The notes below the pieces were generated by a model. That model was given only the letters and a program-made list of their open reading frames with translations, was not told the origin of the DNA and searched no databases. A stretch of 64,000 bases of DNA. Source: Intestinimonas sp. Its GTDB lineage: Bacteria > Bacillota > Clostridia > Oscillospirales > Oscillospiraceae. Shown here piece by piece: positions 5,713-59,136 of the stretch. The position numbers were made by a program, and so were the translations under genes. The stretch lies in contig JALCSB010000001.1 of NCBI GenBank assembly GCA_022653075.1, positions 128,327 through 192,326 on the forward strand, written 5' to 3'. Each line of letters begins with the position of its first letter. Positions within the stretch are counted from its first letter, which is position 1.

Positions 5713-5746
5713 TGTAAGTGTAAATTGAGTCTGGACAAAGAAGTAC

Positions 5747-26989: not shown

Positions 26990-26993
26990 TTAT

Positions 26994-30960: not shown

Positions 30961-30966
30961 CGTTGA

Positions 30967-31839
30967 ATGAAGGGATTACTCTTTTTATTTGGCGTTTTTC
31001 TGGCAGCGGGCCTTTTCCTGATCCTTTCCGATGCTTTAAAACTGCCCTATCTGCGCACGGCGAAGGCCATGTTGAATACCGGCAGGCGGGAGAAAAAAAC
31101 GGCGAAAACGCTGGAGGCGTATCTGCTTTCCGTCTCTGTGAAGCTCGCCCGATACGTCCGCATGGATGAGTACCGGAGGAACCGGATGCAAAGCGTCTTC
31201 AAGGCCGCCGGTATGAACCTGTCGCCGGAGGTGTACCAGACGTATGCCCTCGTCAAGGCCGGAGCGGTGCTTTTGCTTGCGATTCCCTGCCTGCTTTTCT
31301 TCCCGCTGCTGGTTCCCGTGGTGTTGTTTTTATCCATTATGGTCTATTTCAAGGAAAGCAGGCGGGCCGAGGAAAAGCTCGCGGCGAAACGGGAGAGCAT
31401 CGAAAGCGACCTTCCGAGATTCGTGGCCACCATCGAGCAGGAGCTGAAGAACAGCCGGGACGTGCTTTCCATTATTGAAAACTACAAGAAAAACGCGGGC
31501 GCGGACTTTGCCGATGAACTGGACGTTTTGGTCGCGGACATGCGCTCCTCCAGTTATGAGGCGGCGCTCACCCGTTTCGAGGCAAGGCTCAATTCTCCCA
31601 TGCTGTCCGACGTGGTGCGCGGGCTGATCGGCGTCCTTCGCGGGGACGACAGCGCTATGTATTTTCAGATGCTCTCCCATGATTTCAAGCAGATCGAGCT
31701 GCAGCGGCTCAAAAAAGAGGCGCAGAAAATCCCGCCCAAAATCCGTGCACTTTCGTTTGTGATGTTACTGTGTTTTCTGTTTACCTATCTCACCGTCATT
31801 GCCCTGCAGATCATGGATTCGCTTGGCAATCTGTTTTAA
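30967..31839 (+). CDS. type II secretion system F family protein (TadC-like)
   Basis: Second paralogous T2SS-F-like membrane protein directly downstream of the TadB-like gene. Confidence 0.7.
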   Translation: MKGLLFLFGVFLAAGLFLILSDALKLPYLRTAKAMLNTGRREKKTAKTLEAYLLSVSVKLARYVRMDEYRRNRMQSVFKAAGMNLSPEVYQTYALVKAGAVLLLAIPCLLFFPLLVPVVLFLSIMVYFKESRRAEEKLAAKRESIESDLPRFVATIEQELKNSRDVLSIIENYKKNAGADFADELDVLVADMRSSSYEAALTRFEARLNSPMLSDVVRGLIGVLRGDDSAMYFQMLSHDFKQIELQRLKKEAQKIPPKIRALSFVMLLCFLFTYLTVIALQIMDSLGNLF

Positions 31840-31860
31840 TGAAGAAGGAGGTCGTCCGTC

Positions 31861-31956
31861 ATGACGGAAAAAGAAATTCAAAAACAGCTCCAAAACTTCT
31901 ATGCCTGGGAGGAAGAGACACAGGGCGGCGGCGAAGAGGAGGTGCGAATGTGCTGA
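31861..31956 (+). CDS. 31-aa acidic micro-protein (MTEKEIQKQLQNFYAWEEETQGGGEEEVRMC)
   Basis: AAGGAGG lies 9 nt upstream of the ATG. The ORF overlaps the GTG start of the next gene. Below the ORF-track cutoff. Confidence 0.35.
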   Translation: MTEKEIQKQLQNFYAWEEETQGGGEEEVRMC

Positions 31957-32345
31957 AAGTATGGAGAAGCAGGCGGGGCGAGGGTTATGTGGATATCTGT
32001 GTTTTCGTGCTGTGCGCCATGCTGGTGCTGGCTCTGGCGGTCAAAGTGTTTCCGGTATTCATTGCCAAGAATCAGCTCGACACCTTTGCGACGGAGCTGT
32101 GCCGGGAAGCGGAAATCACCGGCTGCGTCGGCAGCGAAACCAGCCGCCGCGCCGCCGTTCTCCGGGAGCAGACCGGCCTCGATCCGGATATTTCGTGGTC
32201 AAAGACCGGGAATATCCAGCTCAACGAGGAAATCACGGTTACCGTCACGCTGCGGAAAAACCTTGGTCTGTTTGACAGCTTTGGTTCCTTTCCCATCACC
32301 CTGCGGGCGCAGGACAGCGGCAAAAGCGAGGTGTATCACAAATGA
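31950..32345 (+). CDS. minor prepilin-like protein (DUF4320/TadE-like)
   Basis: GTG start follows GAGGAGG. N-terminus VLKVWRSRRGEGYVDICVFVLCAMLVLALAV repeats the RRG-EG[FY][IV]D motif of the major pilin. Confidence 0.6.
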   Translation: MLKVWRSRRGEGYVDICVFVLCAMLVLALAVKVFPVFIAKNQLDTFATELCREAEITGCVGSETSRRAAVLREQTGLDPDISWSKTGNIQLNEEITVTVTLRKNLGLFDSFGSFPITLRAQDSGKSEVYHK

Positions 32346-32917
32346 AGAACAGCGTGACGCTGTATCGAATTCGCACAAGGTTCCGTCAGGTTTTAAGGGA
32401 TCGGCGCGGCACCGCCTTTCCTCTGGTGATCGCCCTTACGCTGGCACTGATGCTCATCCTGTGCGGCGTTACCGAGTATATGAGGCTGAACATTATCGCC
32501 TCCGGTGTTCGGGACGCGCTGGAATCCGGGATTATTACAACGGTCAACGACAACTACGCCAACGTCTATCACGGTGTCCGGGAAGGCTACAGCGGCGGGT
32601 ATCAGCCGAACGGCTCCGGTTTTGAGGAAGTGCTCGACTACGGCGATATCTACCGCTATCTTGATAAAATACTCGGCACGGAAAGCAGCGGAGGCAAGCA
32701 TGTGAAATATGCCGGGGATATTGTTGAGTACACACTCAGCGGTCTGTCCGTCAGCATTCGGAACGTGTCTCTCGCCCCTTCCAGCCCGGAAAACGCGCAG
32801 AAATTTGTCGCCGATGCCACAATTCGGCTGGAAGTGCCGGTTCGGTTCGGGGGCAAGGTTTTGCCGCCGATGTCCATTAATTTGAAAGTACAGGCGGGAT
32901 ATACAGAGGTATTCTGA
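32342..32917 (+). CDS. TadE/TadG-like minor pilin candidate
   Basis: The N-terminus has RDRRG followed by the hydrophobic helix TAFPLVIALTLALMLIL. The start overlaps the upstream stop. Confidence 0.55.
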   Translation: MKNSVTLYRIRTRFRQVLRDRRGTAFPLVIALTLALMLILCGVTEYMRLNIIASGVRDALESGIITTVNDNYANVYHGVREGYSGGYQPNGSGFEEVLDYGDIYRYLDKILGTESSGGKHVKYAGDIVEYTLSGLSVSIRNVSLAPSSPENAQKFVADATIRLEVPVRFGGKVLPPMSINLKVQAGYTEVF

Positions 32918-33009
32918 GATTGTCTCAAATATCTCTGGACTTGTGAAAAAATGTAGAGTATGTTGAAAATCAGAAAGAATAAAGCCTATCGGACAAGGAG
33001 GTTTTTACG

Positions 33010-33558
33010 ATGAAAGACAAAAAGAAAAGACTGCTGGTTGTGGCGGGCGGCGGCATCCTCGCGCTGGCGCTTATCCTTGCCATCGCGGGGCAGTTTCATA
33101 CAGATACCCCGGCAGAGGACGTCCTGTCCTCCTCCGGCGCGACCGATTCGAAGATATCCTCGGCACCAGAAGTGAATGTGCCGGAGCAGGACGAAAGCGC
33201 CGTTTCCGTCCTGCTGGAGGATATGGAATCCGAAGCATCGGCAAACTCAATGCCGCCGCAGACGGATCAGTCGGAACAGAGCATCCAGCCGGATGTGTCC
33301 AAGCCCGCAGCGCCGGAAAAACCGAAAGTGGATAACGATGCCGATATAACGAATCCGAAGCAGCCGCCGACCTACAGTCCGGAAAATACGGAAAAGGAAA
33401 CGGGGACGGAATCTTCAAAAAGCACTCCACAGGGCGGTGATACGCAGGACGGAAAAGTATATCTGCCTGGATTTGGATGGGTTACTGATACTGGAGGAAC
33501 TGGATCAACCGCCGATGATATGTATGAAAACGGCAATAAAATTGGGGAAATGAATTAA
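33010..33558 (+). CDS. membrane-anchored low-complexity protein
   Basis: N-terminal TM anchor, a long acidic/Pro/Ser-rich spacer and a conserved-looking C-terminus (KVYLPGFGWVTDTGG). Confidence 0.5.
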   Translation: MKDKKKRLLVVAGGGILALALILAIAGQFHTDTPAEDVLSSSGATDSKISSAPEVNVPEQDESAVSVLLEDMESEASANSMPPQTDQSEQSIQPDVSKPAAPEKPKVDNDADITNPKQPPTYSPENTEKETGTESSKSTPQGGDTQDGKVYLPGFGWVTDTGGTGSTADDMYENGNKIGEMN

Positions 33559-33625
33559 ACTCGTAATATTTCAGGGGACGCACGGTAAAATGCCGTGCGT
33601 TTTCTTTTGCAAAGGAGGCGACCCA

Positions 33626-35359
33626 ATGAAACGGTTATTCAGTGTTCTGCTGGCGCTTATCCTGCTGTGTTGCCCACTGTCGGCGATTCCGGCCTACGCC
33701 ATCGGCGACGGAAACGTGGACGGCGGTGGCGGCGGTATGGGAGATGGAACAAGCACCAACTCATGGACTCCCGGTAACGAGGGTGTGCGGGTTACGGTGA
33801 TTCGGGCCTCCGATCACGCAGTGGTCACCACGCCGATTGATTTGACAAACAAGAAACCTGACAATATCCAATCTCATTTTGGAAAAGTATGCAAATTATC
33901 TTACAACTCAGGTCAGGGACTCTCTCCTTCAAGTGCAAAATACAGTTATACGAATCCAGCGCAGGCTCTGCCAAAAATCATCAGCACCAACGGCACCAAC
34001 AACATTGCCGCCATCAAAAGCTATTTTACCGACGAACAGGTGATCCGCAGTATCGCGAACCTCACCGGCATGGATTTTGATGTATTGACAGACGGAGACT
34101 ACCGGTTGTTACTTGAACCCATTGCCTATTACAAATTTGAGGGCGTGATGATCGCCACCACCGCCACGGAAGCCGCGCTGTATGATAAGCAGGTCGGCGG
34201 CCTGCTCAGAAGCAGAATGGTGTCCCTGTCTCATAAGAACCTGCCGCTGGCCATGTTCTTGGAGGCGGCGGATCTCGGTTACCCCGCATGGTCAGGCAGC
34301 ACGACCACGGCGGCTTCCGACGCGGACATCATTTATTCTCTGGGTCTCGGAATCGTCCGGTTTAAGGACGTGGCGACGGAACCGCCAAACGTTTCCGCTT
34401 ACAATTATGAGTACCGGGTCAACACCGAGGTCATCACGTCGGTCACGGTCAGCGGCGGTCAAAGCGACCCGGATCATTCGGTAACGGTCACGTTCAACGT
34501 CGGCGGCAGAAGCATGCGGGTCAGCAACGTGTATTATCCGGAAGGCGACAGTCAGATTGCATGGATACGCTGGACAACGCCTTCCACGCCGCAGACCATG
34601 ACCATCCCCGTGACCGTGTCGGGAGGCGGCAGTACCAGAAGCGCAGCAATTACCGCCAAAATTGTGGATCTGTCCGGCAACGATCCGCCGAATCCCGTAG
34701 CCGACGACCGAAACGATTCCTATTCCACGCCGTCTGTCCCGAGTAAAGCGCAGAAAACCTCCGCTTCATGGAGTGTGTGGCGGCCTTGGTGGAAGGCGCA
34801 TTGGGTTTGGCACAGCGACTGGAACTGGTACGGTGACGGCAATGGCGGCGGCCATTGGGAGGATGACGGCGAATGGGTCGATGAGGGCTGGTGGGAATTT
34901 GACCTCAATCAGTACCGCGCAAGCCTTTCCGCTTCTATGAAAATACAGCCGGACGAGAAATCCCCGACTGCTTCGGGGAAAACCATGAAGTCCGGCTACG
35001 GAATCAACCAGACCGTGACCGCAAATGTCAGCACCAATCAGTCCTCGGCAGTGACCGGCGCGCAAAATGCCGTGACCTATTTCCCGGAATTCGGGTATCA
35101 GACTTACTGGCGGCTGCTGGAGTGTATGGGTTCCGGGTACAACTCCCAATTTGAGTTTCAAAAGAATCCGTACAGCACCTACGACCGCAGAACGCATTTC
35201 ACGCCGCTGTGGTTTCCTGACGGGAGCTACACGCCATATACATGGTTGATCGACTGCTGGACGCCGGATGGAATGCTCTCTATGAATCTCACTGATTCGG
35301 TAACCATCCGGGGAAATCTGTGGTCGGACTGGCACATCGCGGCGCAGAATCCGGATTAA
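33626..35359 (+). CDS. secreted protein with Gly-rich N-terminus and Trp-rich acidic segment (pilus- or surface-associated candidate)
   Basis: GGAGG RBS and a signal peptide (MKRLFSVLLALILLCCPLSAIPAYA). Last gene of the Tad-like block. Confidence 0.6.
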   Translation: MKRLFSVLLALILLCCPLSAIPAYAIGDGNVDGGGGGMGDGTSTNSWTPGNEGVRVTVIRASDHAVVTTPIDLTNKKPDNIQSHFGKVCKLSYNSGQGLSPSSAKYSYTNPAQALPKIISTNGTNNIAAIKSYFTDEQVIRSIANLTGMDFDVLTDGDYRLLLEPIAYYKFEGVMIATTATEAALYDKQVGGLLRSRMVSLSHKNLPLAMFLEAADLGYPAWSGSTTTAASDADIIYSLGLGIVRFKDVATEPPNVSAYNYEYRVNTEVITSVTVSGGQSDPDHSVTVTFNVGGRSMRVSNVYYPEGDSQIAWIRWTTPSTPQTMTIPVTVSGGGSTRSAAITAKIVDLSGNDPPNPVADDRNDSYSTPSVPSKAQKTSASWSVWRPWWKAHWVWHSDWNWYGDGNGGGHWEDDGEWVDEGWWEFDLNQYRASLSASMKIQPDEKSPTASGKTMKSGYGINQTVTANVSTNQSSAVTGAQNAVTYFPEFGYQTYWRLLECMGSGYNSQFEFQKNPYSTYDRRTHFTPLWFPDGSYTPYTWLIDCWTPDGMLSMNLTDSVTIRGNLWSDWHIAAQNPD

Positions 35360-35433
35360 AAACAGAAAAAGAATAAGGGCCGCATACTTCAAAAAGCAAG
35401 AAGCATGCGGCTTTTCTTTTTCAAACATTCAAA

Positions 35434-35790
35434 ATGAAAGGTGAAAAAATGATGAAAATGAAGCGAATCCTGACCGTACTTTGCGTCGTTGTACTGCTGG
35501 TCTGTATGTTCAGCGTCACCGCTTATGCCGCTGGCAGCGGTGATGTCGCCGGAGCTGTGGAAGGCACATGGAAAACGGCATCGCAGCAGATTAAGACTGT
35601 TGTTAACAGCGTTGTCTTCCCCGCAATCGACCTGATTCTCGCCGTGTTTTTCTTCGCCAAACTCGGTACGGCTTATTTCGACTATAGAAAGCACGGGCAA
35701 TTTGAGTGGGCGGCCCCGGCAATTCTGTTCGCTTGCTTAGTGTTTACGCTGACGGCTCCACTGTACATTTGGAGCGTCGTAGGAATGTAG
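35434..35790 (+). CDS. VirB2/TrbC-like T4SS membrane protein
   Basis: Signal peptide ending AYA plus two hydrophobic helices, about 100 aa mature, lying directly before the VirB6-like gene region. Confidence 0.5.
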   Translation: MKGEKMMKMKRILTVLCVVVLLVCMFSVTAYAAGSGDVAGAVEGTWKTASQQIKTVVNSVVFPAIDLILAVFFFAKLGTAYFDYRKHGQFEWAAPAILFACLVFTLTAPLYIWSVVGM

Positions 35791-35800
35791 AAACCAAGGT

Positions 35801-35832
35801 AGCCGGACAAAGATAATTCTCTTTGTCCGGCT
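35801..35832. terminator. bidirectional terminator hairpin
   Basis: Perfect 13-bp stem AGCCGGACAAAGA / TCTTTGTCCGGCT between convergent genes. Confidence 0.7.
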
Positions 35833-35847
35833 AAATAACTTAATGGC

Positions 35848-36849
35848 TTAATTGAAAAAACCTAGATTGGGATACTTTCTGATAAAGAAACCGTCTTTTA
35901 TTTGGCTTTTATCGAGACTTCCAATTTCGTTATCAAATAATGAATCTTTCATTTGAATTAGCATTTCAATAATTTTTTCATTTTCTTTATCGTATTCACT
36001 ATCACCAAGGTATTTTTCCACTATGAGTCTTATGTGCTCTTTTGGTCGGCTTTCATAAAAGGCTGTTAAAAATTCAATAAGCTTTAACTGTAATTCAATA
36101 GAGTCATACGCTAAATCATAATAAGATTTTTCTTCTTCAACGGTGTCATAATTTTCACCTTCAACTGTGACCACACCCTCGTAAATTTTTGTGAACACAA
36201 ACAAGGAAAAAAACAGTGTTAGCAATTGAAAATTGTTTTTGTGATATGTATAAAGCTTGTCATCAAAGTAGCAAAGAAGAGCGCCAAAGGAACAATGGGT
36301 ATACTGGCACAAAAACTGGTAGAAGTTGCTGTAATAATCTGTTTCCTTCCCCATTTTAAAACCAGCAGGCATTGGTATCTTTCCGACGGAACTTCCTTGT
36401 TCATCAATAATCTTAGATCCTTGCAAAGAGAAGTAATTCAAAGTAACAGACAAAGGGTTCAATATGAACTTCTTGACGACGCTTTCCCGTTCGTTATCAA
36501 TGTCAATATGATCACGGACATACCTATTCATAATATGGTTTTCAAAGATGCTTCGGATTAACATGAAGCAGTCTTCATTAAAAAAATAGGTTTTATCGTT
36601 TAGCAAGGATTTCAAAGCCATTAATGTCTTTGTGCTCTTTATAAATGCAAAATAATCATAATCGTACCCCAATTTGGTATTAAATTTTTCTTCTTCAGGA
36701 ATGGTTCCAGTTGCTTTATACAGCATTAAAATGTCGCCCAATCCATCAGGTACACAGTAGCAATCACAAAAACGTCTGGACTTTAAAATGAATCTATTCA
36801 ACATTTTATGTGAGAGCTTAATTAGCTCTTGTTCACTCATAGAATTCAC
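35848..36849 (-). CDS. AT-rich cargo gene: all-alpha hypothetical protein (tentatively DUF5677/Abi-like)
   Basis: Opposite strand to the conjugation operon and visibly AT-rich codon usage. Segments LIRSIFENHIMNRYV and YYSNFYQFLCQYTHCSFGAL are reminiscent of DUF5677-type proteins, but this similarity is weak. Confidence 0.6.
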   Translation of the reverse strand: MNSMSEQELIKLSHKMLNRFILKSRRFCDCYCVPDGLGDILMLYKATGTIPEEEKFNTKLGYDYDYFAFIKSTKTLMALKSLLNDKTYFFNEDCFMLIRSIFENHIMNRYVRDHIDIDNERESVVKKFILNPLSVTLNYFSLQGSKIIDEQGSSVGKIPMPAGFKMGKETDYYSNFYQFLCQYTHCSFGALLCYFDDKLYTYHKNNFQLLTLFFSLFVFTKIYEGVVTVEGENYDTVEEEKSYYDLAYDSIELQLKLIEFLTAFYESRPKEHIRLIVEKYLGDSEYDKENEKIIEMLIQMKDSLFDNEIGSLDKSQIKDGFFIRKYPNLGFFN

Positions 36850-36962
36850 CTCAATCTATAAAAATTATTTCGATTTAATATTACTGTGCTTAATTTTATC
36901 ATGTATAAGAGCGGTTAACAATTGTTTTAATGGCAACCGCATAAAAGGAGTGATTACACTAA

Positions 36963-37865
36963 ATGTTCATATGGGACTTTGTCGCCGACACGGTCCTCGG
37001 TCAGATTGTGGAATGGATCTACAGCCAGATTGTGGGCTTTCTCGGCGATTTCTTTATGCAGATGGGCGACATGGGAGCCGATCTGTTCGAACTGCCGTGG
37101 GTGCAGTCCATCGTGCTGTTTTTCTCCTATCTCGCGTGGGCGCTGTACGGCGTCGGCCTTGTGGTGGCCTGCTTTGAGTGCGCCATCGAATATCAGTCCG
37201 GCAGGGGCAGCATCCGGGACACGGCGCTCAACGCCATCAAGGGCTTTATGGCCGTGGGCCTGTTCACGACAGTGCCGGTGGAGCTGTACAAACTGTCCGT
37301 GTCCCTGCAGGGAAGTTTTACGGCTGGCATTACCGGGCTTGGCACCGATTTCGGGACGGTTGCCGCCAATATCATTGACACGCTGAAAAACGCGGGCGAC
37401 GTGAATCAGGCCATGAGCAGCAATGTGTTCGGCGGGCTTACCGTCATCACGAGTCCGATTATGATGATATTTATTCTGATCCTCATGGGCTATGCGGTGA
37501 TTAAAGTGTTCTTTGCCAACCTGAAACGCGGCGGCATCCTGCTCATCCAGATTGCCGTGGGGAGCCTTTACATATTCTCTGTTCCGAGGGGTTACATCGA
37601 CGGTTTCGTGGGCTGGTGCAAGCAGGTCATCGGACTGTGCCTGACGGCCTTTTTGCAATCAACCATCCTCATCGCGGGCCTTATGGTGGTCAAAGATCAC
37701 GCCCTGCTCGGCCTGGGACTGATGCTGGCGGCGGGCGAAATTCCCCGGATCGCAGGACAGTTTGGGCTGGACACCAGCACCAAGTCAAACCTCATGGGAA
37801 CCGTTTATGCGGCTCAGACCGCCGTGAACATGACGCGCACCATTGTACAGGCGGTGGCGAAATGA
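36963..37865 (+). CDS. VirB6/TrbL-like T4SS channel protein (CD1112-type)
   Basis: Polytopic membrane protein of typical size, positioned before PrgI and VirB4. Confidence 0.65.
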   Translation: MFIWDFVADTVLGQIVEWIYSQIVGFLGDFFMQMGDMGADLFELPWVQSIVLFFSYLAWALYGVGLVVACFECAIEYQSGRGSIRDTALNAIKGFMAVGLFTTVPVELYKLSVSLQGSFTAGITGLGTDFGTVAANIIDTLKNAGDVNQAMSSNVFGGLTVITSPIMMIFILILMGYAVIKVFFANLKRGGILLIQIAVGSLYIFSVPRGYIDGFVGWCKQVIGLCLTAFLQSTILIAGLMVVKDHALLGLGLMLAAGEIPRIAGQFGLDTSTKSNLMGTVYAAQTAVNMTRTIVQAVAK

Positions 37866-38425
37866 GTGAAAACAAGCTGGTCTATATCTGTTCGCCATAC
37901 GCCGGTGACGTGGCGAACAATGTCAAATTTGCAAAGGCGGCCTGCCGGTATGCGATTCGGAAAAATTGTACGCCGGTGGCTGTTCACCTGTTATATCCAC
38001 AGATTCTGGATGATGCTGTCCCTGCTGAGAGGGAAACCAGCATCCGGATGGGGCTTCGGATCTTAGAGGCCGCCGACGAGCTGTGGTTGTGCTCCAGCCG
38101 AATCTCCGAGGGTATGCGCACGGAGCTTGCCGCTGCCAAGCGGCTCGGAATCCCTGTAAAAGAAATACCGGAATTAGAAATTAAGGGGGGACTATCTATG
38201 AATCAATATGGCGTATGGGCGGTTCGCAGCGCAAATTCTGTGTGCGGCGCGGCGCAAAGTTGGTGCAAGCACAATGGCGAGCCAATCAAATTTGATACCT
38301 ATGAGCAGGCGGCGGCACACGCGAAAATGTTAAACGATAACGCCTACAGTCCGAATGTTTATTATTACCCGAAAGAGATCGAACCGGAGCTGCGGCAATA
38401 CCCCGGCATGAGCCTGAAATTCTGA
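37862..38425 (+). CDS. DUF4406 (nucleoside 2-deoxyribosyltransferase-like) domain protein with C-terminal extension
   Basis: KLVYICSPYAGDVANNV...AVHLLYPQ...ADELWLC matches the DUF4406 pattern. The start overlaps the upstream stop. Confidence 0.55.
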   Translation: MSENKLVYICSPYAGDVANNVKFAKAACRYAIRKNCTPVAVHLLYPQILDDAVPAERETSIRMGLRILEAADELWLCSSRISEGMRTELAAAKRLGIPVKEIPELEIKGGLSMNQYGVWAVRSANSVCGAAQSWCKHNGEPIKFDTYEQAAAHAKMLNDNAYSPNVYYYPKEIEPELRQYPGMSLKF

Positions 38426-38438
38426 AGGAGGCCGAAAC

Positions 38439-38696
38439 ATGTATATTTATCCTGATAACCTGAAGGCGAAGGCTACTCTGTGGCTGTGGCAGCTTCGGGA
38501 TATCGGCGTGATCGGCGTGGGAGCACTGCTTTCCATTCTCGCCCTGACGCAGATAAGGTTTATACCGCCCATCGTCCTGACCGCCGTATACGCCTTCCTG
38601 ACCATCCGTTTTGAGGACACAAGCATTCTGGATTTTCTCCGGTATGCTTGTGCCTTTTTTATCGGCAAGCAGCAAATCTATGAATGGGCAGACTGA
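38439..38696 (+). CDS. PrgI-family (VirB3-like) T4SS protein
   Basis: 85 aa with two hydrophobic helices, immediately upstream of the VirB4 region. Confidence 0.65.
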   Translation: MYIYPDNLKAKATLWLWQLRDIGVIGVGALLSILALTQIRFIPPIVLTAVYAFLTIRFEDTSILDFLRYACAFFIGKQQIYEWAD

Positions 38697-38778
38697 GTCT
38701 GCAAGCTAATCGCTCAATCATTTATTGCGGAAGTCGCGGCGCGATCCCCGCGCCCCGGATTTCGCGGAAAGGAGAACT

Positions 38779-39366
38779 ATGAGCAGAAAGAAAAAAGAGG
38801 CCAAGCGGAAAGCCTCCACAAGGCAGCTCATGAACACCAAGACAATCACTGACTACAGCCTGCAGACCTATGGTCACGGGGAACTGGTGTATTTTCAGAT
38901 CAAGCCGAGCAACATTTCCGTTTTGTCGGAGGAAAGCATCAGCGCCCGGATCTACGCCCTGATGACCGTGCTGAAAGGAATCGCCGAAATTGAGATGCTG
39001 TGCCTCAACAGCCGTGAAAATTTTGAGGACAACAAGCACTTTCTTTGCAGCCGGATGGAGCAGGAGCAGAATCCCGTGATGCGGAAACTGCTGGAAAAGG
39101 ACCTGTCCTTCCTTGACCGGATACAGGTGCAGATGGCCACAGCCCGTGAGTTCCTCATCATCATCCGTCTGCGCGACGAGAAGCAAAGCGAAGTATTCCC
39201 CTATCTGTCCCGGATCGAAAAATCCCTCAAGGAACAGGGTTTCATCGCCAGCCGCGCCGGGAATGAGGACATCAAGCGGCTGCTGGCCGTTTATTTTGAG
39301 CAGAACATGACCACGGAAAAGTTTGAGGATTTCGACGGGGAAAGATGGGTGATTCTGAATGAATAA
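38779..39366 (+). CDS. VirB4 N-terminal-domain-like protein (possible detached 5' part of virB4)
   Basis: AAAGGAGAA RBS. A Lys-rich leader is followed by ELVYFQIKPSNISVLSEESI..., the pattern seen at the N-terminus of Gram-positive VirB4 ATPases. Combined length with the next VirB4 ORF is about 800 aa. Confidence 0.5.
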   Translation: MSRKKKEAKRKASTRQLMNTKTITDYSLQTYGHGELVYFQIKPSNISVLSEESISARIYALMTVLKGIAEIEMLCLNSRENFEDNKHFLCSRMEQEQNPVMRKLLEKDLSFLDRIQVQMATAREFLIIIRLRDEKQSEVFPYLSRIEKSLKEQGFIASRAGNEDIKRLLAVYFEQNMTTEKFEDFDGERWVILNE

Positions 39367-39380
39367 GAATGGGCCTATGC

Positions 39381-39423
39381 AAAATCAGAAGCCGAGAGCT
39401 ATTATTCTCGGCTTCCGATTTTG
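39381..39423. terminator. bidirectional terminator hairpin
   Basis: Stem GAAGCCGAGA / TCTCGGCTTC flanked by AAAATCA and CGATTTT. Confidence 0.7.
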
Positions 39424-39436
39424 CTCATAATATAAA

Positions 39437-40243
39437 TTACTTATTATTAGGTAACTCAAATTCTGCAAACAAAATTGCATGGTCGGGAAGTCCTATTAAA
39501 TCAGATTTATAATCTTCTGGCTTTCTATTTCCGTAGCCATTGCCGTTTGTCACAAAACTCCAATCATACACTATGCTATCGCTATGCATTTCAATACCTA
39601 TTGTTACGATATGATCAATTAAAGCTTTACCAACTACATCAGTTTTAGGATTTCTAATCACCGCACTCCAAGTGTCAAGAGTGTTAAAATCGCCGAACTC
39701 CATCGCATACTTTGGGGTAAAAATATTATCTGAAATTATACCCAACTTTTTTGAAAGGGGTTTTTTCCATACATTAAAATCACCTGCACAAAGTACATTT
39801 GTGTTCTTTAATGACTTTAAGTGATCTTTTAAGAATTCAAATTGAGATGCTATCTGTTCTTTAGTTCCTTGGGTCTTAATTCTCACACCCATAATAGCTA
39901 AAGATGTACTATCCAATTTTGCTTCAATTTGTAAAGATTCTGGTTTTTCTTTTTCCAAGGGATTCTCTGTTAGGACTCTTTTAATTGAAAATCCTGTTTC
40001 TTTTTTCAAAGCAATCATAACCTGATTTCTTTCACTTATATATGGTGAAAGAAATAAATTATAAGTCTTTTCCAATGTCTTTTTTAAATAATCCCATTGT
40101 TTCCCAGCTACAAACTCTACAATAATAGCAATATCTACCTTTTGGTATAAAATTGTATCTGCAACAAAATTGGGTATGGCATAATTTCCATAGCCACCGG
40201 CACCATGAATATTCCATTCCATGATTTTAATTGTTTGAGACAT
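39437..40243 (-). CDS. endonuclease/exonuclease/phosphatase (EEP) family protein, AT-rich cargo
   Basis: IMEWNIHG (N-terminal metal-binding Asn/His context), CAGDFNV, and a C-terminal IDHI...LPDHAIL (SDH-like motif). Opposite strand and AT-rich. Confidence 0.8.
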   Translation of the reverse strand: MSQTIKIMEWNIHGAGGYGNYAIPNFVADTILYQKVDIAIIVEFVAGKQWDYLKKTLEKTYNLFLSPYISERNQVMIALKKETGFSIKRVLTENPLEKEKPESLQIEAKLDSTSLAIMGVRIKTQGTKEQIASQFEFLKDHLKSLKNTNVLCAGDFNVWKKPLSKKLGIISDNIFTPKYAMEFGDFNTLDTWSAVIRNPKTDVVGKALIDHIVTIGIEMHSDSIVYDWSFVTNGNGYGNRKPEDYKSDLIGLPDHAILFAEFELPNNK

Positions 40244-40405
40244 ATTTATATTCCTCTTTAATTCAAAAAGTTTGTAATCAACATATTATATTGCGAATTT
40301 ATATACAACCATTATACCATGTTTTTCCTCAGATTTGTCCAAAGCCGTCACAGAAATGTGGCGGCTTTTCTATGTTCAGAAAAAATCAGAAAGGAAGCAT
40401 GCCTC

Positions 40406-42247
40406 ATGGCAAAACAGCCGAAAACCAAAGCTCCTCCGCAGGAGGATGTACATGTACAGGATTTTCTGGAAATGATCGCGCCTTCCATCATCAAATTTAA
40501 TACCGACCATTTCATCTGCGGCAACACGTATCGCTGCGTCTGGGCGCTTCGGGAGTACCCGACCTCCACTGACGAGCAGGCGATCCTGCGGCACCTCGGT
40601 GAAAAGGACGGCATCACACTGCGAATCTATACCCGCCACGTTACGCCGGTGGAAGAAAAAAAGATCATCAGCAATGCTGCCAATAAAAACCGAATGAGCA
40701 AAAGCAATACCAACGATCTGCAGCAGACTGTGCTGGCCGAAAGCAATTTGCAGGACGTGGCGACCATCGTGGCGCAGATGCACCGGAACCGGGAACCGCT
40801 GCTCCATGCCGCCGTTTACATCGAGCTGTCCGCTCATGATATGGATCAGCTTAAACTATTACAGACCGAGGTTCTGACGGAGCTGATCCGCAGTAAGCTC
40901 AATGTCGACCGGCTGATGCTCCTCCAGCAGCAGGGATTTCTCTGCGTCATGCCGAGCGGCTGGAACGTGTTCGGCGACCAGTTTGAACGCGTTCTCCCCG
41001 CGTCTTCGGTTGCCAATCTCTATCCCTTCAACTACTCCGGTAAGACCGATCCCCACGGATTTTACATTGGGCGGGACAAATTCGGCAGCAACGTGCTGGT
41101 GGATTTCAACCGTAGGGCCGATGACAAGACCAACGCCAACATTCTCATCCTCGGCAATTCCGGTCAGGGAAAGAGCTATCTTCTTAAGCTCATCCTGTGC
41201 AATCTGAGGGAATCCGGCATGAATGTAATCTGCCTAGATCCCGAAATGGAGTACGAGGATTTAACCAACAATCTCGGCGGCTGCTTCATTGATTTAATGT
41301 CAGGGGAACATATCATCAATGTTCTGGAACCGAAAACATGGGACGAGCAGGATTGCGCGGATGCCCGCGAGGACGGCGAGTATGTGCCGGAAGCCTTCCG
41401 GAAAACAAGCAAGCTCAGTCAGCACATCAGCTTTCTCAAGGATTTTTTCCGGACATACAAGGATTTTACCGACCGGCAGATCGACGTGATCGAAATCATG
41501 CTCCAGAAGCTCTATGAGAAATGGGGCATCACCGATCACAGCAACTTCGACCGGCTGAAGCCTGCGGATTATCCGATTCTGTCCGACCTTTACGCGCTGA
41601 TTGAGGACGAGTACAAAAATTATGATACGGTCAGCCGCCAGCTCTATAACGCCGAGCTGCTGCAGGAAATCCTTCTTGGCCTCCACTCCCTATGCAAAGG
41701 GTCGGAGGCCAAATTCTTTGACGGACATACCAATATCACGGACGGCAGCTTCATCACCTTTGGGGTGAAAGGCTTGCTGCAAGCCAGCAAAAGCATCCGG
41801 AACGTTATGCTGTTCAATGTGCTGTCCTACATGAGTAACGAGCTTCTGACTACCGGGAACACCGCCGCCAGCATCGATGAATTTTATTTGTTCCTGACCA
41901 ATCTCACCGCCGTGGAGTATGTCCGCAACTTTATGAAACGTGTCCGCAAAAAGGACAGCGCCGTGATCCTTGCCAGCCAGAACCTTGAGGACTTCAACAT
42001 CGAGGGTATCCGGGAGTACACCAAGCCTCTGTTTTCCATTCCAACCCATCAGTTTCTGTTTAACGCCGGGAATATCGACGCGAAGTTTTACATCGATACG
42101 CTTCAGCTTGAACAGAGCGAATACAATCTGATCCGCTACCCGCAGCGAGGCATATGCCTTTATAAATGCGGAAATGAGCGGTACAACCTGATGGTGAACG
42201 CGCCGGAGCATAAGGCGGCTCTGTTTGGAAAGGCGGGCGGGCGCTGA
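40406..42247 (+). CDS. virB4: VirB4-family conjugal transfer ATPase (lacking the usual N-terminal ~190 aa)
   Basis: DFLEMIAPSIIKF...REYP, Walker A GNSGQGKSYLLK, Walker B IDEFYLF and the COG3451 pattern. Confidence 0.85.
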   Translation: MAKQPKTKAPPQEDVHVQDFLEMIAPSIIKFNTDHFICGNTYRCVWALREYPTSTDEQAILRHLGEKDGITLRIYTRHVTPVEEKKIISNAANKNRMSKSNTNDLQQTVLAESNLQDVATIVAQMHRNREPLLHAAVYIELSAHDMDQLKLLQTEVLTELIRSKLNVDRLMLLQQQGFLCVMPSGWNVFGDQFERVLPASSVANLYPFNYSGKTDPHGFYIGRDKFGSNVLVDFNRRADDKTNANILILGNSGQGKSYLLKLILCNLRESGMNVICLDPEMEYEDLTNNLGGCFIDLMSGEHIINVLEPKTWDEQDCADAREDGEYVPEAFRKTSKLSQHISFLKDFFRTYKDFTDRQIDVIEIMLQKLYEKWGITDHSNFDRLKPADYPILSDLYALIEDEYKNYDTVSRQLYNAELLQEILLGLHSLCKGSEAKFFDGHTNITDGSFITFGVKGLLQASKSIRNVMLFNVLSYMSNELLTTGNTAASIDEFYLFLTNLTAVEYVRNFMKRVRKKDSAVILASQNLEDFNIEGIREYTKPLFSIPTHQFLFNAGNIDAKFYIDTLQLEQSEYNLIRYPQRGICLYKCGNERYNLMVNAPEHKAALFGKAGGR

Positions 42248-42269
42248 TGGGAGGAAGTGAAGAAATTGT

Positions 42270-43304
42270 ATGGACATGAAGCAGCAGCGATTCGGCATTG
42301 AAATCGAGCTGACCGGAATCACCCGCAAGGCCGCCGCTGAGATTGCCGCCGAACATTTCGGTACCGCCGTCAATTTTGACGGCACCTACTACAATACCTA
42401 CAGCGCGCTGGACGATCAGGGACGCAAGTGGAATTTCATGAGCGATTCCAGTATTTCGGCGCAGAAAAAGTCCGGCGGGCAGGTCGTATCCGCCTCAGAT
42501 GAGTACAAAACCGAGATGGTCAGCCCGATCTGCCGGTGGGAGGACATCGAAACCGTACAGGAGCTGGTGCGCAAACTCCGTAAAGCGGGGGCCATCGCCA
42601 ACGAGAGCTGCGGTATCCATGTTCACGTGGACGCTTCTCCTTTTAACGCCAACACCCTTCGGAATATTACCAATATCATGGCCAGCAAAGAGGATCTGAT
42701 CTACAAGGCGCTGCAGGTCACCGTGGCAAGGCAGCATCGCTGGTGCAAGCCGGTGGATTCGCGTTTCTTGGAGGAACTGAACCGGAAAAAACCGAAAACG
42801 CTGAACGAGGTCAGCCGCATCTGGTACAACGGCGGCGACCGCAGCAATATCCACTACGATGAAAGCCGCTATCACTGCCTCAATCTGCACAGCGTATTCC
42901 AGAAAGGCACGGTGGAATTCCGCTTGTTCAACTCCACCACCCACGCCGGGAAAATCAAGGCGTATATCCAGTTCTGCCTTGCCATCTCCGCACAGGCGCT
43001 GAACCAGCGGTGTGCGAGCCGCCAGAAAACGCAGACCACCAACGAGAAATACACCTTCCGCACCTGGCTTCTGCGGCTCGGTTTGATTGGCGACGAATTC
43101 AAAACCGCCCGCACTCATCTTTTGGAGCATCTGGACGGCTGCATCGCGTGGCGCGATCCGGCGCAGGCAGAGAAACAGAAGGAACGGATGCGGCAGAAAA
43201 AAGAACAGGAGCAGACGCAATCCGTGCCCGCAGAAACAACCGAAAGCGGACAGGAACAGGCCGGGGATCAGAACGAATCCCCGGCCTTTGTCATGCGCAT
43301 GTAA
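42270..43304 (+). CDS. amidoligase family protein (Pfam Amidoligase_2, glutamine-synthetase-like fold)
   Basis: FGIEIELTG, TEMVSPIC, ESCGIHVHVD and GTVEFRLFNST match the Amidoligase_2 signature. Confidence 0.7.
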   Translation: MDMKQQRFGIEIELTGITRKAAAEIAAEHFGTAVNFDGTYYNTYSALDDQGRKWNFMSDSSISAQKKSGGQVVSASDEYKTEMVSPICRWEDIETVQELVRKLRKAGAIANESCGIHVHVDASPFNANTLRNITNIMASKEDLIYKALQVTVARQHRWCKPVDSRFLEELNRKKPKTLNEVSRIWYNGGDRSNIHYDESRYHCLNLHSVFQKGTVEFRLFNSTTHAGKIKAYIQFCLAISAQALNQRCASRQKTQTTNEKYTFRTWLLRLGLIGDEFKTARTHLLEHLDGCIAWRDPAQAEKQKERMRQKKEQEQTQSVPAETTESGQEQAGDQNESPAFVMRM

Positions 43305-43321
43305 GAAAAAGGAGGCTGATC

Positions 43322-43828
43322 ATGAGTACGAAAAACACATTGTATATCGCCTACGGCAGCAACCTGAATCTGCCGCAGATGGCGTTCCGCTGCCCGACTG
43401 CCAAGGTGGTCGGCGCAAGCGAAATCAAGGGATACGAGCTGCTGTTCCGGGGAGGCCGGAAAGGAGCCGTGGCAACTGTGGAACCTTTTGAGGGCGGCTC
43501 GGTGCCTGTGCTTTTGTGGAAGATCAGGTCCGGTGACGAGCAGGCCCTTGACCGTTACGAAGGGTATCCTCACTTTTACCGCAAAGAAATGATGGAGGTG
43601 GAGCTGAAAGGAAAAGCTGTTCCGGGCATGGTTTATGTGATGAACGGAGGCCATGAGCTTGGCGCTCCCTCCGATTTTTACCTCAATACCATAATGGAAG
43701 GATATAAAACTGCCGGGTTTGATACGGATTTCCTCGATCAGGCTGTGGAGAAATCTGTCCGGTTGGCAGCAGAACAGCAGGAAGCGGAATCAATGCAGGG
43801 CAGTTTGTTCGGCCCGAAATGGTGGTGA
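43322..43828 (+). CDS. gamma-glutamylcyclotransferase (AIG2/GGACT-like) family protein
   Basis: LYIAYGSNLNLPQM (YGSNL motif), LDRYEGYPHFYRK. Confidence 0.75.
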   Translation: MSTKNTLYIAYGSNLNLPQMAFRCPTAKVVGASEIKGYELLFRGGRKGAVATVEPFEGGSVPVLLWKIRSGDEQALDRYEGYPHFYRKEMMEVELKGKAVPGMVYVMNGGHELGAPSDFYLNTIMEGYKTAGFDTDFLDQAVEKSVRLAAEQQEAESMQGSLFGPKWW

Positions 43829-43834
43829 TGCCCC

Positions 43835-44932
43835 ATGGCTGATCCGGCAACCATAGCCCTCGCGGTCAAAGCCGCCATTGCCGCCGCTTCGGACAAGCGG
43901 ACGTGGAAAGCCGCCGGTGTGCTGATTGCCGTCGTTCTGACTCCCTTCATTTTAATCATTGTAATGATTATGAGCCTGTTGTCCGGAACGGCGCAGCACA
44001 ACGACTCCGCTGTGGATCTGGTTTTCAACGGCGGCTCCATCTCGGCACAGGTACCCGCTGAGTACCGGCAGTACATCGAAGATATGCGGGACAGCTTCTC
44101 CGCTTTAGACGGCGCTGTGTCGGAGATCACACCTCAGATTGAAAGCGGCAGTATCGACACTACCCGAGTGAAATCCATTTTTTATTCTCTGTATTTCGGC
44201 GCTGAAAATCTTCGAATGGACAAAAATGGCTACCGAAAATTTGCCGACACTTTCATCCGGTACAAAAAGCGCACACGCACCGTCACCGACAAGGATGGCA
44301 AGCAAATGGAAGAAACCTACACTGTGGCGGTTCCGATTTCCGACCTGAATGAAATTTACGCCAACCTTGAAAGCGCGCTTGGCAGAACGATCACCAACGA
44401 AAACAAAGTCAACGCCGCTCAGATTTACAGCCGTGTGATCTATGGACACAGCCTGCAGGAAAATGAAAACTTCGGTGAAGATGAATGGAAAAAAGGCGTC
44501 GGAACAGATGACGTGTATACAGGCGGCGGCTATTTTGCCAGTCCTATCGGGGCGAACTGGCGCAGTTTGGTCACCTCGGAATTCGGGTGGAGGCCAAATC
44601 CTTTCGGCGGCAACGGCGGCGAAGGCCACTCCGGTCTTGACCTCGGTGCACCCAAAGGTACGCCCATCCATGCTGCCCGTGACGGTGTTGTGAGCAGCGT
44701 GGTGGACTCCGGCAGCAGTGGCTACGGCTATCATTTGGTCATCGATCACGGCGACGGGATGGTCACTCTTTACGGTCACTGCTCTAAGGTTTATGTCCGT
44801 TCCGGCCAGACTGTAAAGCAGGGCGACGTCATCGCAGCGGTGGGCAGCACCGGCAGAAGCACCGGAAACCATCTGCATTTTGAAATCCGCGTAAACGGAA
44901 AGGCGGTTAATCCGAGAAATTATTTACCTTAA
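43835..44932 (+). CDS. membrane-anchored M23 family metallopeptidase (T4SS peptidoglycan hydrolase)
   Basis: TM anchor, then the HSGLDLGAP...GTPIHA...GSTGRSTGNHLHFEI (HxxxD ... HxH) LytM signature. Confidence 0.85.
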   Translation: MADPATIALAVKAAIAAASDKRTWKAAGVLIAVVLTPFILIIVMIMSLLSGTAQHNDSAVDLVFNGGSISAQVPAEYRQYIEDMRDSFSALDGAVSEITPQIESGSIDTTRVKSIFYSLYFGAENLRMDKNGYRKFADTFIRYKKRTRTVTDKDGKQMEETYTVAVPISDLNEIYANLESALGRTITNENKVNAAQIYSRVIYGHSLQENENFGEDEWKKGVGTDDVYTGGGYFASPIGANWRSLVTSEFGWRPNPFGGNGGEGHSGLDLGAPKGTPIHAARDGVVSSVVDSGSSGYGYHLVIDHGDGMVTLYGHCSKVYVRSGQTVKQGDVIAAVGSTGRSTGNHLHFEIRVNGKAVNPRNYLP

Positions 44933-44944
44933 GGGGGACGAATC

Positions 44945-45868
44945 ATGTTAAAGACCAAAGCTGTTTTTGAAAGAAAGCTGGATTGCTTCCAACCGCAGGA
45001 CTGTGTGATCGAGGCAATCGAAGAACTGTCGGCAGCGGAATTCAAAGACTTTTGTGAAAATATGCTGGCCGACAGAAACTTTATTGCCGACCGTATCGGC
45101 GATATGTATTTGGATGGAAACGGAGTGCAGCACGGGCTGCTGGTACTCGGTGAAGGCTCGGATGATGCTGTTCTGGTGGACAGCTCCGGCTATTCCTACG
45201 GCAGATATACCGCTTTCCTTCCAAACTTTAAGCCATATGTGAACCATCAGATTTCGCTGCTGGCTGATGAGATCATCCGGGACGGAACTCAAAAAACCGA
45301 AAACGGCAATTGGGAAATTTCCTTTGATGAGATCGAGGAACGGTACGGTGTTCACGTTACACCGAACAACGGCATCGGTACCATGCTGCTGAATGCGTTG
45401 TCCGCCAGTGATGAGGTAGCGGAAATTGAACCGATGGAGGACAACTTTGACATCACCTATTATCTTGATTACTGCCCCAAGTGCGACGGACAGCAGGAAA
45501 AAGGCTCCAAAAAAATAACAGAGCAAATTGCCCCGGCTGCCAAGCTCCGTGATATGCTTCACACCAAATGGGAGGACATCCATCTCATCCACCACGAGAT
45601 TGAAAACGAGCCATCCACCATTGTGGAGCTAGATGAATCTACGCTGACCGAAGCCGGAAAGGAAGCGTGGGCTGATGTTCTGAATGCAGATGTCTTGCGT
45701 GTCTATACCGGCTATTACGGTTTGCAGATGGAGCTTGCCGGTGTGAAGGCCAGCCGACTGGATGCGTTTTCTTCCATGCTGGCTGGCTACTGCTCGGTTC
45801 AGAACTATGAAAAATGGGTAAACGAATCAGGGGATCAGTCGTCGCAGACCCCGGAAATGAAATTATGA
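44945..45868 (+). CDS. hypothetical ICE protein
   Basis: Acidic cytoplasmic protein with no recognised motif. Confidence 0.5.
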   Translation: MLKTKAVFERKLDCFQPQDCVIEAIEELSAAEFKDFCENMLADRNFIADRIGDMYLDGNGVQHGLLVLGEGSDDAVLVDSSGYSYGRYTAFLPNFKPYVNHQISLLADEIIRDGTQKTENGNWEISFDEIEERYGVHVTPNNGIGTMLLNALSASDEVAEIEPMEDNFDITYYLDYCPKCDGQQEKGSKKITEQIAPAAKLRDMLHTKWEDIHLIHHEIENEPSTIVELDESTLTEAGKEAWADVLNADVLRVYTGYYGLQMELAGVKASRLDAFSSMLAGYCSVQNYEKWVNESGDQSSQTPEMKL

Positions 45869-45869
45869 A

Positions 45870-46139
45870 ATGGAGGAAACCAACATGAAAAACACAAATT
45901 TAACCGTTTCTTTCGACACAGAAAAACTGGACGCCCTGACCTATCACATGGGCAAAAAGGACGCGGATCTGCAGACGGAACTGCAGTATACCGTTCAGAA
46001 GCTCTATGAAAAATATGTCCCGCAGGCTACCCGCGAATACATCGACGACAAGCTCTCCCGCGAAACCGCAGAGAAACCGAAGCCCAAACGCCCTGTACGC
46101 CCTGTGGTATCGAACGGTTCTGCAGACAGCCTGACATAA
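45870..46139 (+). CDS. small hypothetical ICE protein
   Basis: 89 aa with a Pro/Lys-rich tail. The start may be the ATG at 45885. Confidence 0.45.
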   Translation: MEETNMKNTNLTVSFDTEKLDALTYHMGKKDADLQTELQYTVQKLYEKYVPQATREYIDDKLSRETAEKPKPKRPVRPVVSNGSADSLT

Positions 46140-46531
46140 GGAACAAAACCGTTGGCGCGTGTTGGCGGCTGTGTTGCCCCGTGTGGCGTTTTATGAGGCC
46201 GAGTGGCATCCATATACCTGTTGGCAGCAGCAGCCCCGCGTTGCGCCCGTTTGACAAAGCTGTGAGAAAACCCCTGAATTCCTTGAAATTGCTGCTTTCC
46301 GGAGGCAGACTGGCAGGGTCGAAAGTGGTGCAGGTTAAAGGCATTATGCTGCTTTCGCAGCCTAATGCCGAGAAACACCGACCGGCAAAGCCGTTCGGTG
46401 ATTGCGAAGTGACATAACTTCTCCCCAAAGTCCTGATTTGTTATGCTGAATTTTGAAATAAGCGAGATGTTCCGGGCGTTCTGAGCGTTTTCATTGTATA
46501 CTCACGACCATCGCCAGAAAAAGGAGGCAGT
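46140..46531 (+). promoter_or_regulatory. non-coding region, candidate oriT/relaxosome binding region
   Basis: No credible ORF. Contains clustered GTTGGC repeats (46152..46240) and inverted repeats GGCATTA/TAATGCC (46340..46369) and CACCGACCGGC/GCCGTTCGGTG (46376..46400). Lies upstream of the RHH accessory gene and the relaxase gene. Confidence 0.35.
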
Positions 46532-49089: not shown

Positions 49090-49150
49090 TTTTGAGCGAT
49101 CAGCAGTGGTCGCTCTTTTTCTTTGCCCCAAACACAGAAAGGAGGCTGCC

Positions 49151-56072: not shown

Positions 56073-56096
56073 GGGAGGGCGCAAGGTGACGACACA

Positions 56097-59132: not shown

Positions 59133-59136
59133 GTGA

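Follow-up and report, generated by a model that had tools for sequence, protein, structure and literature searches.

Organization of the virB4 region

The DNA analyzed here (the window, 64,000 nt of contig JALCSB010000001.1 from Intestinimonas sp.) carries an LGI1-like Gram-positive conjugative element with a MobL relaxase, VirD4, TrbL_5, and a Tad pilus. In this element, two plus-strand open reading frames (ORFs) that correspond to different parts of the conjugation ATPase VirB4 are separated by a gene on the opposite strand. The upstream ORF, referred to as virB4-N (or N), spans positions 38725..39366 and encodes 195 aa from the ATG codon at 38779 or 213 aa from the TTG codon at 38725; the downstream one, virB4-C (or C), is open over 40319..42247 and encodes 613 aa from the start codon at 40406, the same start being conserved in related elements. 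The gene between them encodes a predicted enzyme of the endonuclease/exonuclease/phosphatase (EEP) superfamily. Its GC content is about 0.30 to 0.36, and the composition of the window drops to 0.30 to 0.38 across 39300-40499 versus 0.50 to 0.56 in the flanks on both sides. The first-pass annotation of this DNA, made from the sequence alone, described these three ORFs, the AT-rich middle, and two hairpins next to it; all these features were found at their places, the hairpins at 39388-39415 and 40341-40368 in a pattern scan. Its assignment of the 195-aa and 613-aa ORFs to the N- and C-terminal parts of VirB4 is borne out by the offset of the NCBIfam alignments, by Foldseek, VIA, and hhalign comparisons, and by the long homolog P0017, and its placement of the middle gene among the EEP-fold enzymes holds at the superfamily level, given the invariant residues in 40 relatives, a profile search of PDB, and the predicted fold.

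VirB4 is the most conserved protein of conjugation and serves as a marker for finding and classifying conjugative systems. The data presented below make it highly probable that the VirB4 of this conjugative element family is encoded as two genes, that accessory genes are regularly accommodated in the gap between the two, and that the EEP gene did not break VirB4.

Two proteins corresponding to one VirB4

The virB4-C gene is present in a single copy in the genome. Its product matches the Pfam domains AAA_10 (37.6 bits, with a cut-off of 27.5), DUF87, and P-loop_TraG and contains the motif DFLEMIAPS near its start, the Walker A motif GNSGQGKS, and the sequence DEFY (D491, E492), which by our reading is the likely Walker B motif. 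Fifteen relatives all retain GNSGQGKS and DEFY without change, so this protein has the Walker A and B pair of a VirB4/TraC-type P-loop ATPase. It aligns with positions 186-730 of the 752 positions of the profile NF045971 (conju_CD1110), scoring 157.2 bits, below the cut-off of 325, and with positions 293-888 of 894 in NF045975 (VirB4_plasma, the Mbov_0397 family), scoring 285 bits, below the cut-off of 590; it belongs to neither of these curated families. Since the first alignment begins at profile position 186, virB4-C is without the N-terminal ~185 positions of the single-chain VirB4.

The missing part appears to be supplied by virB4-N. Its AlphaFold model, built with 41 sequences, has a pLDDT of 83.7, and in a Foldseek search ranks 1 to 10 and 12 were all taken by the TrwK/VirB4 protein of plasmid R388, with E values from 1.8e-3 to 1.6e-2. 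The top VIA match of the model was 7o42_A (Z 7.3, root mean square deviation [rmsd] 5.4, 168 aligned residues), with model residues 13-195 lying on chain residues 15-229; the runner-up had a Z of 6.9 with 94 residues aligned. For comparison with intact single-chain proteins of the CD1110 type, the N-terminal 260 residues were taken from eight relatives (778 to 842 aa) that had been retrieved with NF045971 from genomes of the same order. The family profile of virB4-N aligned colinearly with these N termini over 172 columns in hhalign (probability 80.7%, E 1.3e-5). Taken together, the VIA, Foldseek, and hhalign results argue with moderate strength that the N-terminal VirB4-fold domain is provided here by a separate 195-aa protein. 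A representative in the protein library, P0017 (712 aa), contains the N part at its residues 8-190, with residue 4 of C aligning at its residue 196. It shows no alignment to virB4-C residues 218-412, the stretch with the Walker A motif, and might represent either a fusion that has decayed or an artefact of gene calling.

That virB4-N and virB4-C together make up one VirB4 is well supported. Unlike the usual single polypeptide of ~750 to 850 aa, this VirB4 consists of two ORFs, both here and in all 75 related loci in which N was found (see below), and is best filed as a two-chain variant rather than a standard member of the family. The two proteins would be expected to assemble into a working VirB4.

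The two-gene state is a trait of the family

Related elements (sister loci, designated with L) were sampled as the best 80 of 127 relatives by virB4-C, with 80 to 93% identity. In 75 of these 80, N was found upstream of C by tblastn. Four of the other five have less than 1.4 kb of upstream DNA, and L037 is the only sister locus that has the full 6 kb upstream of C and no N match, so that either its load exceeds 6 kb or N has been lost. A stop codon closes N before C in 75 of 75 cases, and no fused frames were detected (0/75). Sixteen of the 75 junctions are closed, i.e., the genes abut or overlap, with less than 150 nt from the N stop codon to codon 16 of C. In L003, L005, L014, L040, and L042, the N stop codon ends a few bases beyond the first start codon in the C frame, and the same overlap is seen in L041, where the contig end truncates N; in L044, L054-L056, L048, L018-L021, and L059, the two genes are separated by a 20- to 56-nt spacer with a ribosome-binding site. 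The genes are likewise separate in L092, which is more distantly related (62% identity in C and 43% in N). When relatives of N were collected with phmmer from a representative library of 1.84 billion proteins, 144 of the best 150 of 971 matches at E ≤ 1e-3 were shorter than 400 aa, and among the matches listed only P0017 was long enough for both parts. The N stop codon and the ribosome-binding site and start codon of C are conserved features of the backbone.

The split of VirB4 is a family trait older than the EEP cargo. The first-pass annotation had proposed that virB4 was divided by insertion of the EEP cassette and had named beforehand the finding that would speak against this, namely, cassette-free relatives with two separate genes. 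Exactly such relatives are represented by the 16 closed sister loci; as these are two-gene loci with no insert, the split was not caused by the EEP cassette. Of the two outcomes that the annotation had allowed for, an element that tolerates a split VirB4 agrees with all 75 sister loci, whereas inactivation of conjugation by the insertion probably did not take place.

The junction as a cargo slot

In the remaining 59 of the 75 sister loci, the junction is occupied by 0.15 to 5.1 kb of unrelated DNA, with 182 to 5,194 nt between the N stop codon and codon 16 of C. These 59 junctions contain 152 ORFs of at least 60 aa that fall into 72 clusters. Representatives of 63 of the 72 clusters were compared with Pfam and 23 cargo ORFs with PADLOC; the nine clusters left out were short singletons. 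Proteins of the Fic/DOC type (PADLOC PDC-S04/SoFic) were found in 19 loci. Resistance-type cargo includes arsenic resistance operons, chloramphenicol acetyltransferase, BacA, and MFS pumps accompanied by MarR, and the other loads include GNAT acetyltransferases, a metallo-beta-lactamase-fold protein, glyoxalase, AbiEi/AbiEii, HEPN and DUF6119 proteins, and sigma/anti-sigma pairs. Two occupied junctions, L026 and L069, have no ORF of at least 60 aa. The EEP gene of the window is absent from all 80 sister loci. The features of a cargo hotspot in integrative and conjugative elements (ICEs) can all be seen here: the same site between core genes, unrelated contents, and N and C that remain open in all loci. 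The N-C junction is a recurrent cargo slot.

The slot of L023 holds a DDE transposase (4388-5860 of that locus; DDE_Tnp_1_6, DUF772), which indicates that insertion sequences are one route by which DNA enters the slot. In the first 90 nt after the N stop codon, many plus-strand loads of the sister loci (Fic and others) start with a TGTGGTATAAT-like extended -10 box, for example in L016, L017, L024, L070-L074, and L077-L080. It seems that such cargo carries or exploits a strong promoter of its own and ends at the conserved hairpin described below.

A second AT-rich gene of the opposite strand is located in the window at 35848-36849, between a 589-aa ORF (33590-35359) and the TrbL_5 gene, next to a strong hairpin at 35800-35833. 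This gene has a GC content of about 0.33 and encodes a 333-aa protein with a weak match to DUF5677 (24 bits, below the cut-off of 27.1); this DUF5677-like protein had no matches in the 80 sister loci, PADLOC, or PHROGs. The gap between the 589-aa ORF and TrbL_5 is 511 to 2,477 nt long in 17 sister loci and looks like a second variable slot.

Hairpins at the borders of the slot

In a scan of ~20 kb (26500-46400), the three strongest terminator-like sites were the hairpins at 39388-39415, 40341-40368, and 35800-35833. The first two, which border the EEP cassette, fit the pattern of intrinsic terminators, a GC-rich stem-loop followed by a T-run, as judged from the sequence only. The left-border hairpin, which has 19 pairs (9 of them GC) in its extended form, is a likely bidirectional terminator for virB4-N and the EEP gene. 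A strong hairpin in the 90 nt that follow N is present in only 12 of the 60 occupied junctions, including that of the window. Four others among these 12, L007, L009, L015, and L025, each carry a different minus-strand cargo, and in L009, L015, and L025, the stems after the N stop codon are of the form GGAAGCC...GGCTTCC, related to the left hairpin of the window.

The right-border hairpin is more general. In most occupied junctions, a GC-rich hairpin with a T-run ends about 30 to 45 nt before the start of C, with any cargo on either strand; measured from the ribosome-binding site of virB4-C, this conserved hairpin lies about 35 nt upstream. The score at this place is at least 24 in 39 of the 60 occupied junctions (the window included), compared with 2.2% of 228 control pieces of 95 nt taken from inside the C gene. 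Several more junctions score 17 to 23, and L008, L010, L027, and L049 show no hairpin. For the 28 borders that belong to the sequence class of the window, the commonest one, RNAalifold returned 10 consensus pairs, four of them with a compensatory double change, and the GAAAGGA core of the virB4-C ribosome-binding site was invariant in the same alignment. Other lineages have a quite different stem sequence at the same position. The right hairpin is present in L026 and L069 even though they have no cargo ORF, and the closed junctions leave no room for it. A role of the border hairpins as recombination sites was considered and set aside: the two hairpins of the window share only the outer AAGCCG/CGGCTT letters, and the sequence differences among lineages at the right border fit better with a structural role. 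A search of Rfam with E ≤ 1 gave no matches across 35000-43000.

A weak promoter-like site on the plus strand, 40262-40289, matches 9 of 12 consensus positions, but such sites are no more frequent here than expected from shuffled sequence. Transcription of virB4-C and the downstream genes might proceed by read-through or antitermination of the border hairpin. Terminators combined with antitermination in conjugation operons reportedly have named examples in pLS20 (conAn) and Tn916. The element described here resembles these systems in having strong intrinsic-terminator-like hairpins inside a long transfer operon; it differs from them in that read-through would be supposed by analogy, and no antitermination factor turned up, although no search aimed at one was made. 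Bypass of internal terminators by processive antitermination in conjugation operons of Gram-positive bacteria is described in the available text of PMC8955417.

Probable exchange of cassettes and transfer of loaded elements

The stretch 38700-41200 occurs in metagenome runs of several studies, and four metagenome or RNA runs (X6, X7, X19, and X20) were compared in detail over the junction. In X7, a single contig covers 38705-40339, with at least 31 differences in N and 4 listed in the cassette. In X6, the contig with the EEP cassette covers 39402-40323 with 4 differences; a second contig matches N and the left hairpin as far as 39431 before continuing into unlike sequence, a low-depth contig leaves at 39366 into sequence that resembles the closed junction of L003, and yet another one joins from unlike sequence at 40294. 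Thus, EEP-loaded junctions, junctions with other cargo, and closed junctions are all present in the X6 metagenome. Contigs with other cargo in X6 and X19 part from the window only after 39431/39433, and these divergence points, with the one at 40294, delimit a cassette-specific part of about 39432-40293, about 0.86 kb. This pattern suggests that cassettes have been exchanged between diverged backbones. Such an exchange would most simply proceed by recombination between related elements in the conserved flanks.

The loaded elements may still be capable of transfer. The reading frames of the remaining transfer genes in the window are open, and near-identical loaded elements occur in differently labelled genera, for which reason conjugation has probably not been inactivated by the slot load. 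The loci L028 and L029, labelled as an Anaerovorax metagenome-assembled genome (MAG) and a Butyricicoccus isolate, respectively, share 99.96% identity along 13,827 nt, of which 5.1 kb is ars cargo, a match that reflects either a recent transfer of the loaded element or a binning error. The pairs L060/L061 and L073/L074 are 99.9% identical, each with a named isolate and a MAG.

Alternative explanations

The following observations weigh against the interpretation of a functional two-gene VirB4 with a cargo slot. The 80 loci were chosen by the likeness of C (at least 80% identity), so that they sample one family. The virB4-N protein has no matches in Pfam or NCBIfam, its sequence profile has no matches among PDB sequences at E ≤ 10, its model has no Foldseek match at E ≤ 1e-3, and its fold scores (Z 7.3 at rmsd 5.4, hhalign probability 80.7%) are middling. 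Two strong plus-strand terminator-like hairpins stand between N and C, neither the sequence nor a promoter scan revealed a convincing promoter between 40368 and 40406, and a polar block on virB4-C by the two hairpins is possible. The RNA-library contigs X19 and X20, which come from a relative, span only N, in X19 followed by other cargo. Finally, the genus labels of MAGs can be wrong, which makes the argument from cross-genus occurrence suggestive only.

Some of these observations could be explained by a natural two-gene state in which this particular load is harmful: the hairpins would stop transcription, leaving little expression of virB4-C and the downstream genes, and transfer would be poor or absent. 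In addition to the lack of a good promoter after the right hairpin, this explanation draws on the plus-strand position, between N and C, of two hairpins that rank among the three strongest terminator-like sites in 20 kb and on the rarity of the EEP cassette, which is found in none of the sister loci and whose protein belongs to a 90%-identity cluster of 2. However, the right hairpin is found in most occupied junctions, as well as in L026 and L069, which have no cargo ORF, and can be considered a normal part of working backbones. Moreover, loaded relatives are near-identical across genus labels, the same EEP-loaded junction appears in runs of several studies, and all downstream transfer ORFs are open. 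A harmful load therefore appears unlikely.

It is less probable still that the 195-aa protein is an independent accessory transfer protein, which would resemble VirB4 only through a common alpha/beta arrangement, VirB4 itself being simply short at the N terminus. Such a protein would account for the absence of sequence family matches and for fold scores that lie in the range where common arrangements occur, and would be compatible with the up to 5 kb that can part N from C. On the other hand, two independent structure searches rank VirB4 first, one of them colinear with residues 15-229, and the profile-profile match to the single-chain N termini is colinear as well, over 172 columns. Furthermore, C begins exactly where the N-terminal ~185 positions of the profiles stop, the order of a small membrane protein, N, and C mirrors virB3-virB4, and N accompanies C in 75 of 80 loci.

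The idea of a single-chain virB4 gene cut in two by the EEP cassette, with conjugation inactivated as a result, could appeal to the joint coverage of the whole VirB4 by the two ORFs, to the GC content of the cassette, sharply unlike that of its flanks, and to P0017, which holds N and C in one chain, but it is practically dismissed by the unfused state of all 75 sister loci, 16 of them insert-free, and by the conservation of the N stop and the C ribosome-binding site and start in the backbone, while P0017, with no match to the Walker A stretch, may itself be a decayed copy.

The EEP protein

The product of the middle gene had no Pfam matches at E ≤ 0.01 and one weak NCBIfam match (E 3.7e-4, 20 bits, with a cut-off of 144). 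It has 63 relatives in a collection of 5.8 billion proteins, 6 of which have a precomputed match to PF03372 (Exo_endo_phos), and two relatives, L100 and L101, score 25.3 and 32.5 bits, respectively, above the family cut-off of 24.5. When 399 genomes of its class were scored, the protein was detected in 4, its own genome included, and its 90%-identity cluster has 2 members. In an alignment of 40 sequences, N11, E43, F156, D254, and H255 are invariant, and D155 and N157 are conserved in at least 90%. The structural model (pLDDT 93) had 297 matches among PDB chains at E ≤ 1e-3 in Foldseek, with TDP2 ranking first (E 8.8e-16, TMq 0.64 to 0.67, 17 to 22% identity), followed by LINE-1 endonuclease and Nocturnin. 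A search of PDB with the sequence profile retrieved sphingomyelinase C (4e-4) and TDP2 (1e-3), and a feature search of a protein atlas agrees on the family. Thus, both the fold and the N, E, D/N, and D-H residues of the EEP superfamily are present.

The translation starts directly in the first strand and shows no signal peptide, which makes a role as a secreted enzyme of the lipase type unlikely. With its catalytic-type residues intact, the protein is predicted to be a cytoplasmic metal-dependent phosphodiesterase or nuclease that acts on nucleic acid; its most likely activity would be the cleavage of phosphodiester or 5'-adduct bonds in nucleic acids, from which the element or its host would benefit. 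It shares the fold, the N/E/D-N/D-H residues, and the length of about 250 to 270 aa with TDP2, LINE-1 endonuclease, Nocturnin, and sphingomyelinase C. Unlike TDP2, it is bacterial and borne by a mobile element, and the sequence likeness is marginal (E about 1e-3), the comparison being one of overall fold rank.

Given the company that this gene keeps in the slot, a role in defence or competition is plausible. The protein had no matches to PADLOC-DB 2.0 families at E ≤ 1e-3, and neither it nor virB4-N matched PHROGs families. The neighbors of three EEP relatives include a type I restriction-modification system, prophage-like genes, and a large serine recombinase; these contexts hint at mobile or variable regions, though not conclusively. 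A literature search found no relevant report of stand-alone EEP defence genes, which is not proof of absence.

A far more elaborate proposal, which we consider very doubtful, is that the junction is a purpose-built insulated cargo bay with a terminator and antitermination and that the EEP protein is a TDP2-like enzyme that strips 5'-tyrosine-bound proteins and so disables rival elements. The terminator would keep cargo transcription out of the transfer operon, while the polymerase complexes of the element itself would read through. The targets of the enzyme could be relaxases, rolling-circle Rep proteins, or terminal proteins, and the rivals could be plasmids, ICEs, or phages that enter the cell.

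Comparison with known systems and implications

The components of this locus, VirB4, ICE hotspots, internal terminators, and EEP enzymes, are all of known kinds. Their combination is unusual in that the most conserved gene of conjugation is maintained as a pair of genes, with the seam used as a cargo slot bordered by terminator-like hairpins. The protein shares with the single-chain VirB4 (TrwK of R388, PDB entries 7o42, 8rtb, and 8rtd; NF045971; NF045975) a P-loop ATPase with Walker A and DEFY motifs, an N-terminal domain of the same fold, and a gene position after a small membrane protein and near VirB6/TrbL. It differs from them by a stop codon, often followed by kilobases of cargo, between the equivalents of residues about 190 and 200.

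In SXT/R391 ICEs, variable hotspots between conserved genes carry accessory cargo. The slot described here is similarly a fixed intergenic site between transfer genes, with varied accessory genes that include those for resistance and abortive infection; however, it falls within a region that other families encode as one gene, has terminator-like hairpins on both sides, and is not associated with any dedicated recombination genes identified here. The Listeria element LGI1 is described in the available text of Gilmour et al. (2010; PMC2834635) as having virB4, virD4, virB6, and tad/cpa pilus genes and relatives in Clostridia. The same kinds of genes are present in the window, and the 85-aa protein encoded upstream of virB4-N shares a 90%-identity cluster with Listeria proteins; compared by description, virB4 is named in the available text of PMC2834635 with no mention there of a two-gene form or a slot. 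A literature search found no published account of a split VirB4 (the "split" passages in the available text of PMC3548315 are irrelevant in this respect) and no title on the hotspots of this family, which is not proof of absence from print.

The Firmicutes ICE family with the two-gene VirB4 is widespread, and pipelines designed to annotate a single long VirB4 may mistake its members for broken elements; for the window, the proposal that an insertion abolished conjugation no longer stands. The seam, as an accessory gene slot, offers a precise place to look for resistance and defence genes in Clostridia from the gut, sludge, and soil, and the conserved border hairpin is a testable case of cargo insulation inside a transfer operon.

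Other features of the element

The features of the virB4 region are listed in Table 1. The 85-aa protein has no matches in Pfam or NCBIfam, and its 90%-identity cluster includes members from Listeria and Carnobacterium; from its position and hydrophobicity alone, it can be described as a putative VirB3-like protein.

Table 1. Features of the virB4 region, in coordinates of the window
Feature	Position	Strand	Evidence or remarks
Small protein, 85 aa, with two hydrophobic stretches	38439..38696	+	ORF; directly 5' of virB4-N, in the VirB3/PrgI position
virB4-N, 195 aa	38779..39366	+	Probable stand-alone equivalent of the first ~200 residues of single-chain VirB4
Left-border hairpin	39388..39415	.	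11 pairs; T-runs on both sides; extended stem about 39378-39423
Cassette-specific segment, EEP gene and about 50 nt upstream	39432..40293	.	Divergence points of variant elements
EEP cargo gene, 268 aa	39437..40243	-	ORF, conserved residues, profile search, fold
AT-rich spacer 5' of the EEP gene, presumed EEP promoter region	40244..40340	.	Sequence, promoter scan
Right-border hairpin and T-run, terminator-like	40341..40368	+	12 pairs; kept 5' of virB4-C whatever the cargo
virB4-C ribosome-binding site, AAAGGAAG	40390..40397	+	8 nt 5' of the ATG at 40406
virB4-C, 613 aa, P-loop ATPase	40406..42247	+	Pfam, partial NCBIfam alignments, Walker motifs

The neighbors of these genes in the window include, according to Pfam, TrbL_5 (E 2e-152), DUF7768, Amidoligase_2, and Peptidase_M23; the MobL relaxase, a Toprim primase-like protein, and VirD4 are encoded farther along, all in open reading frames. 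The relaxase gene, at 49106-50950, encodes MobL fused to Sel1 repeats, and a stand-alone D12-class adenine methyltransferase is encoded in the element at 23308-24168. The region downstream of VirD4, 54313-60696, contains genes for an ABC transporter pair, a histidine kinase, and an MFS pump, which may be further cargo near the end of the element.

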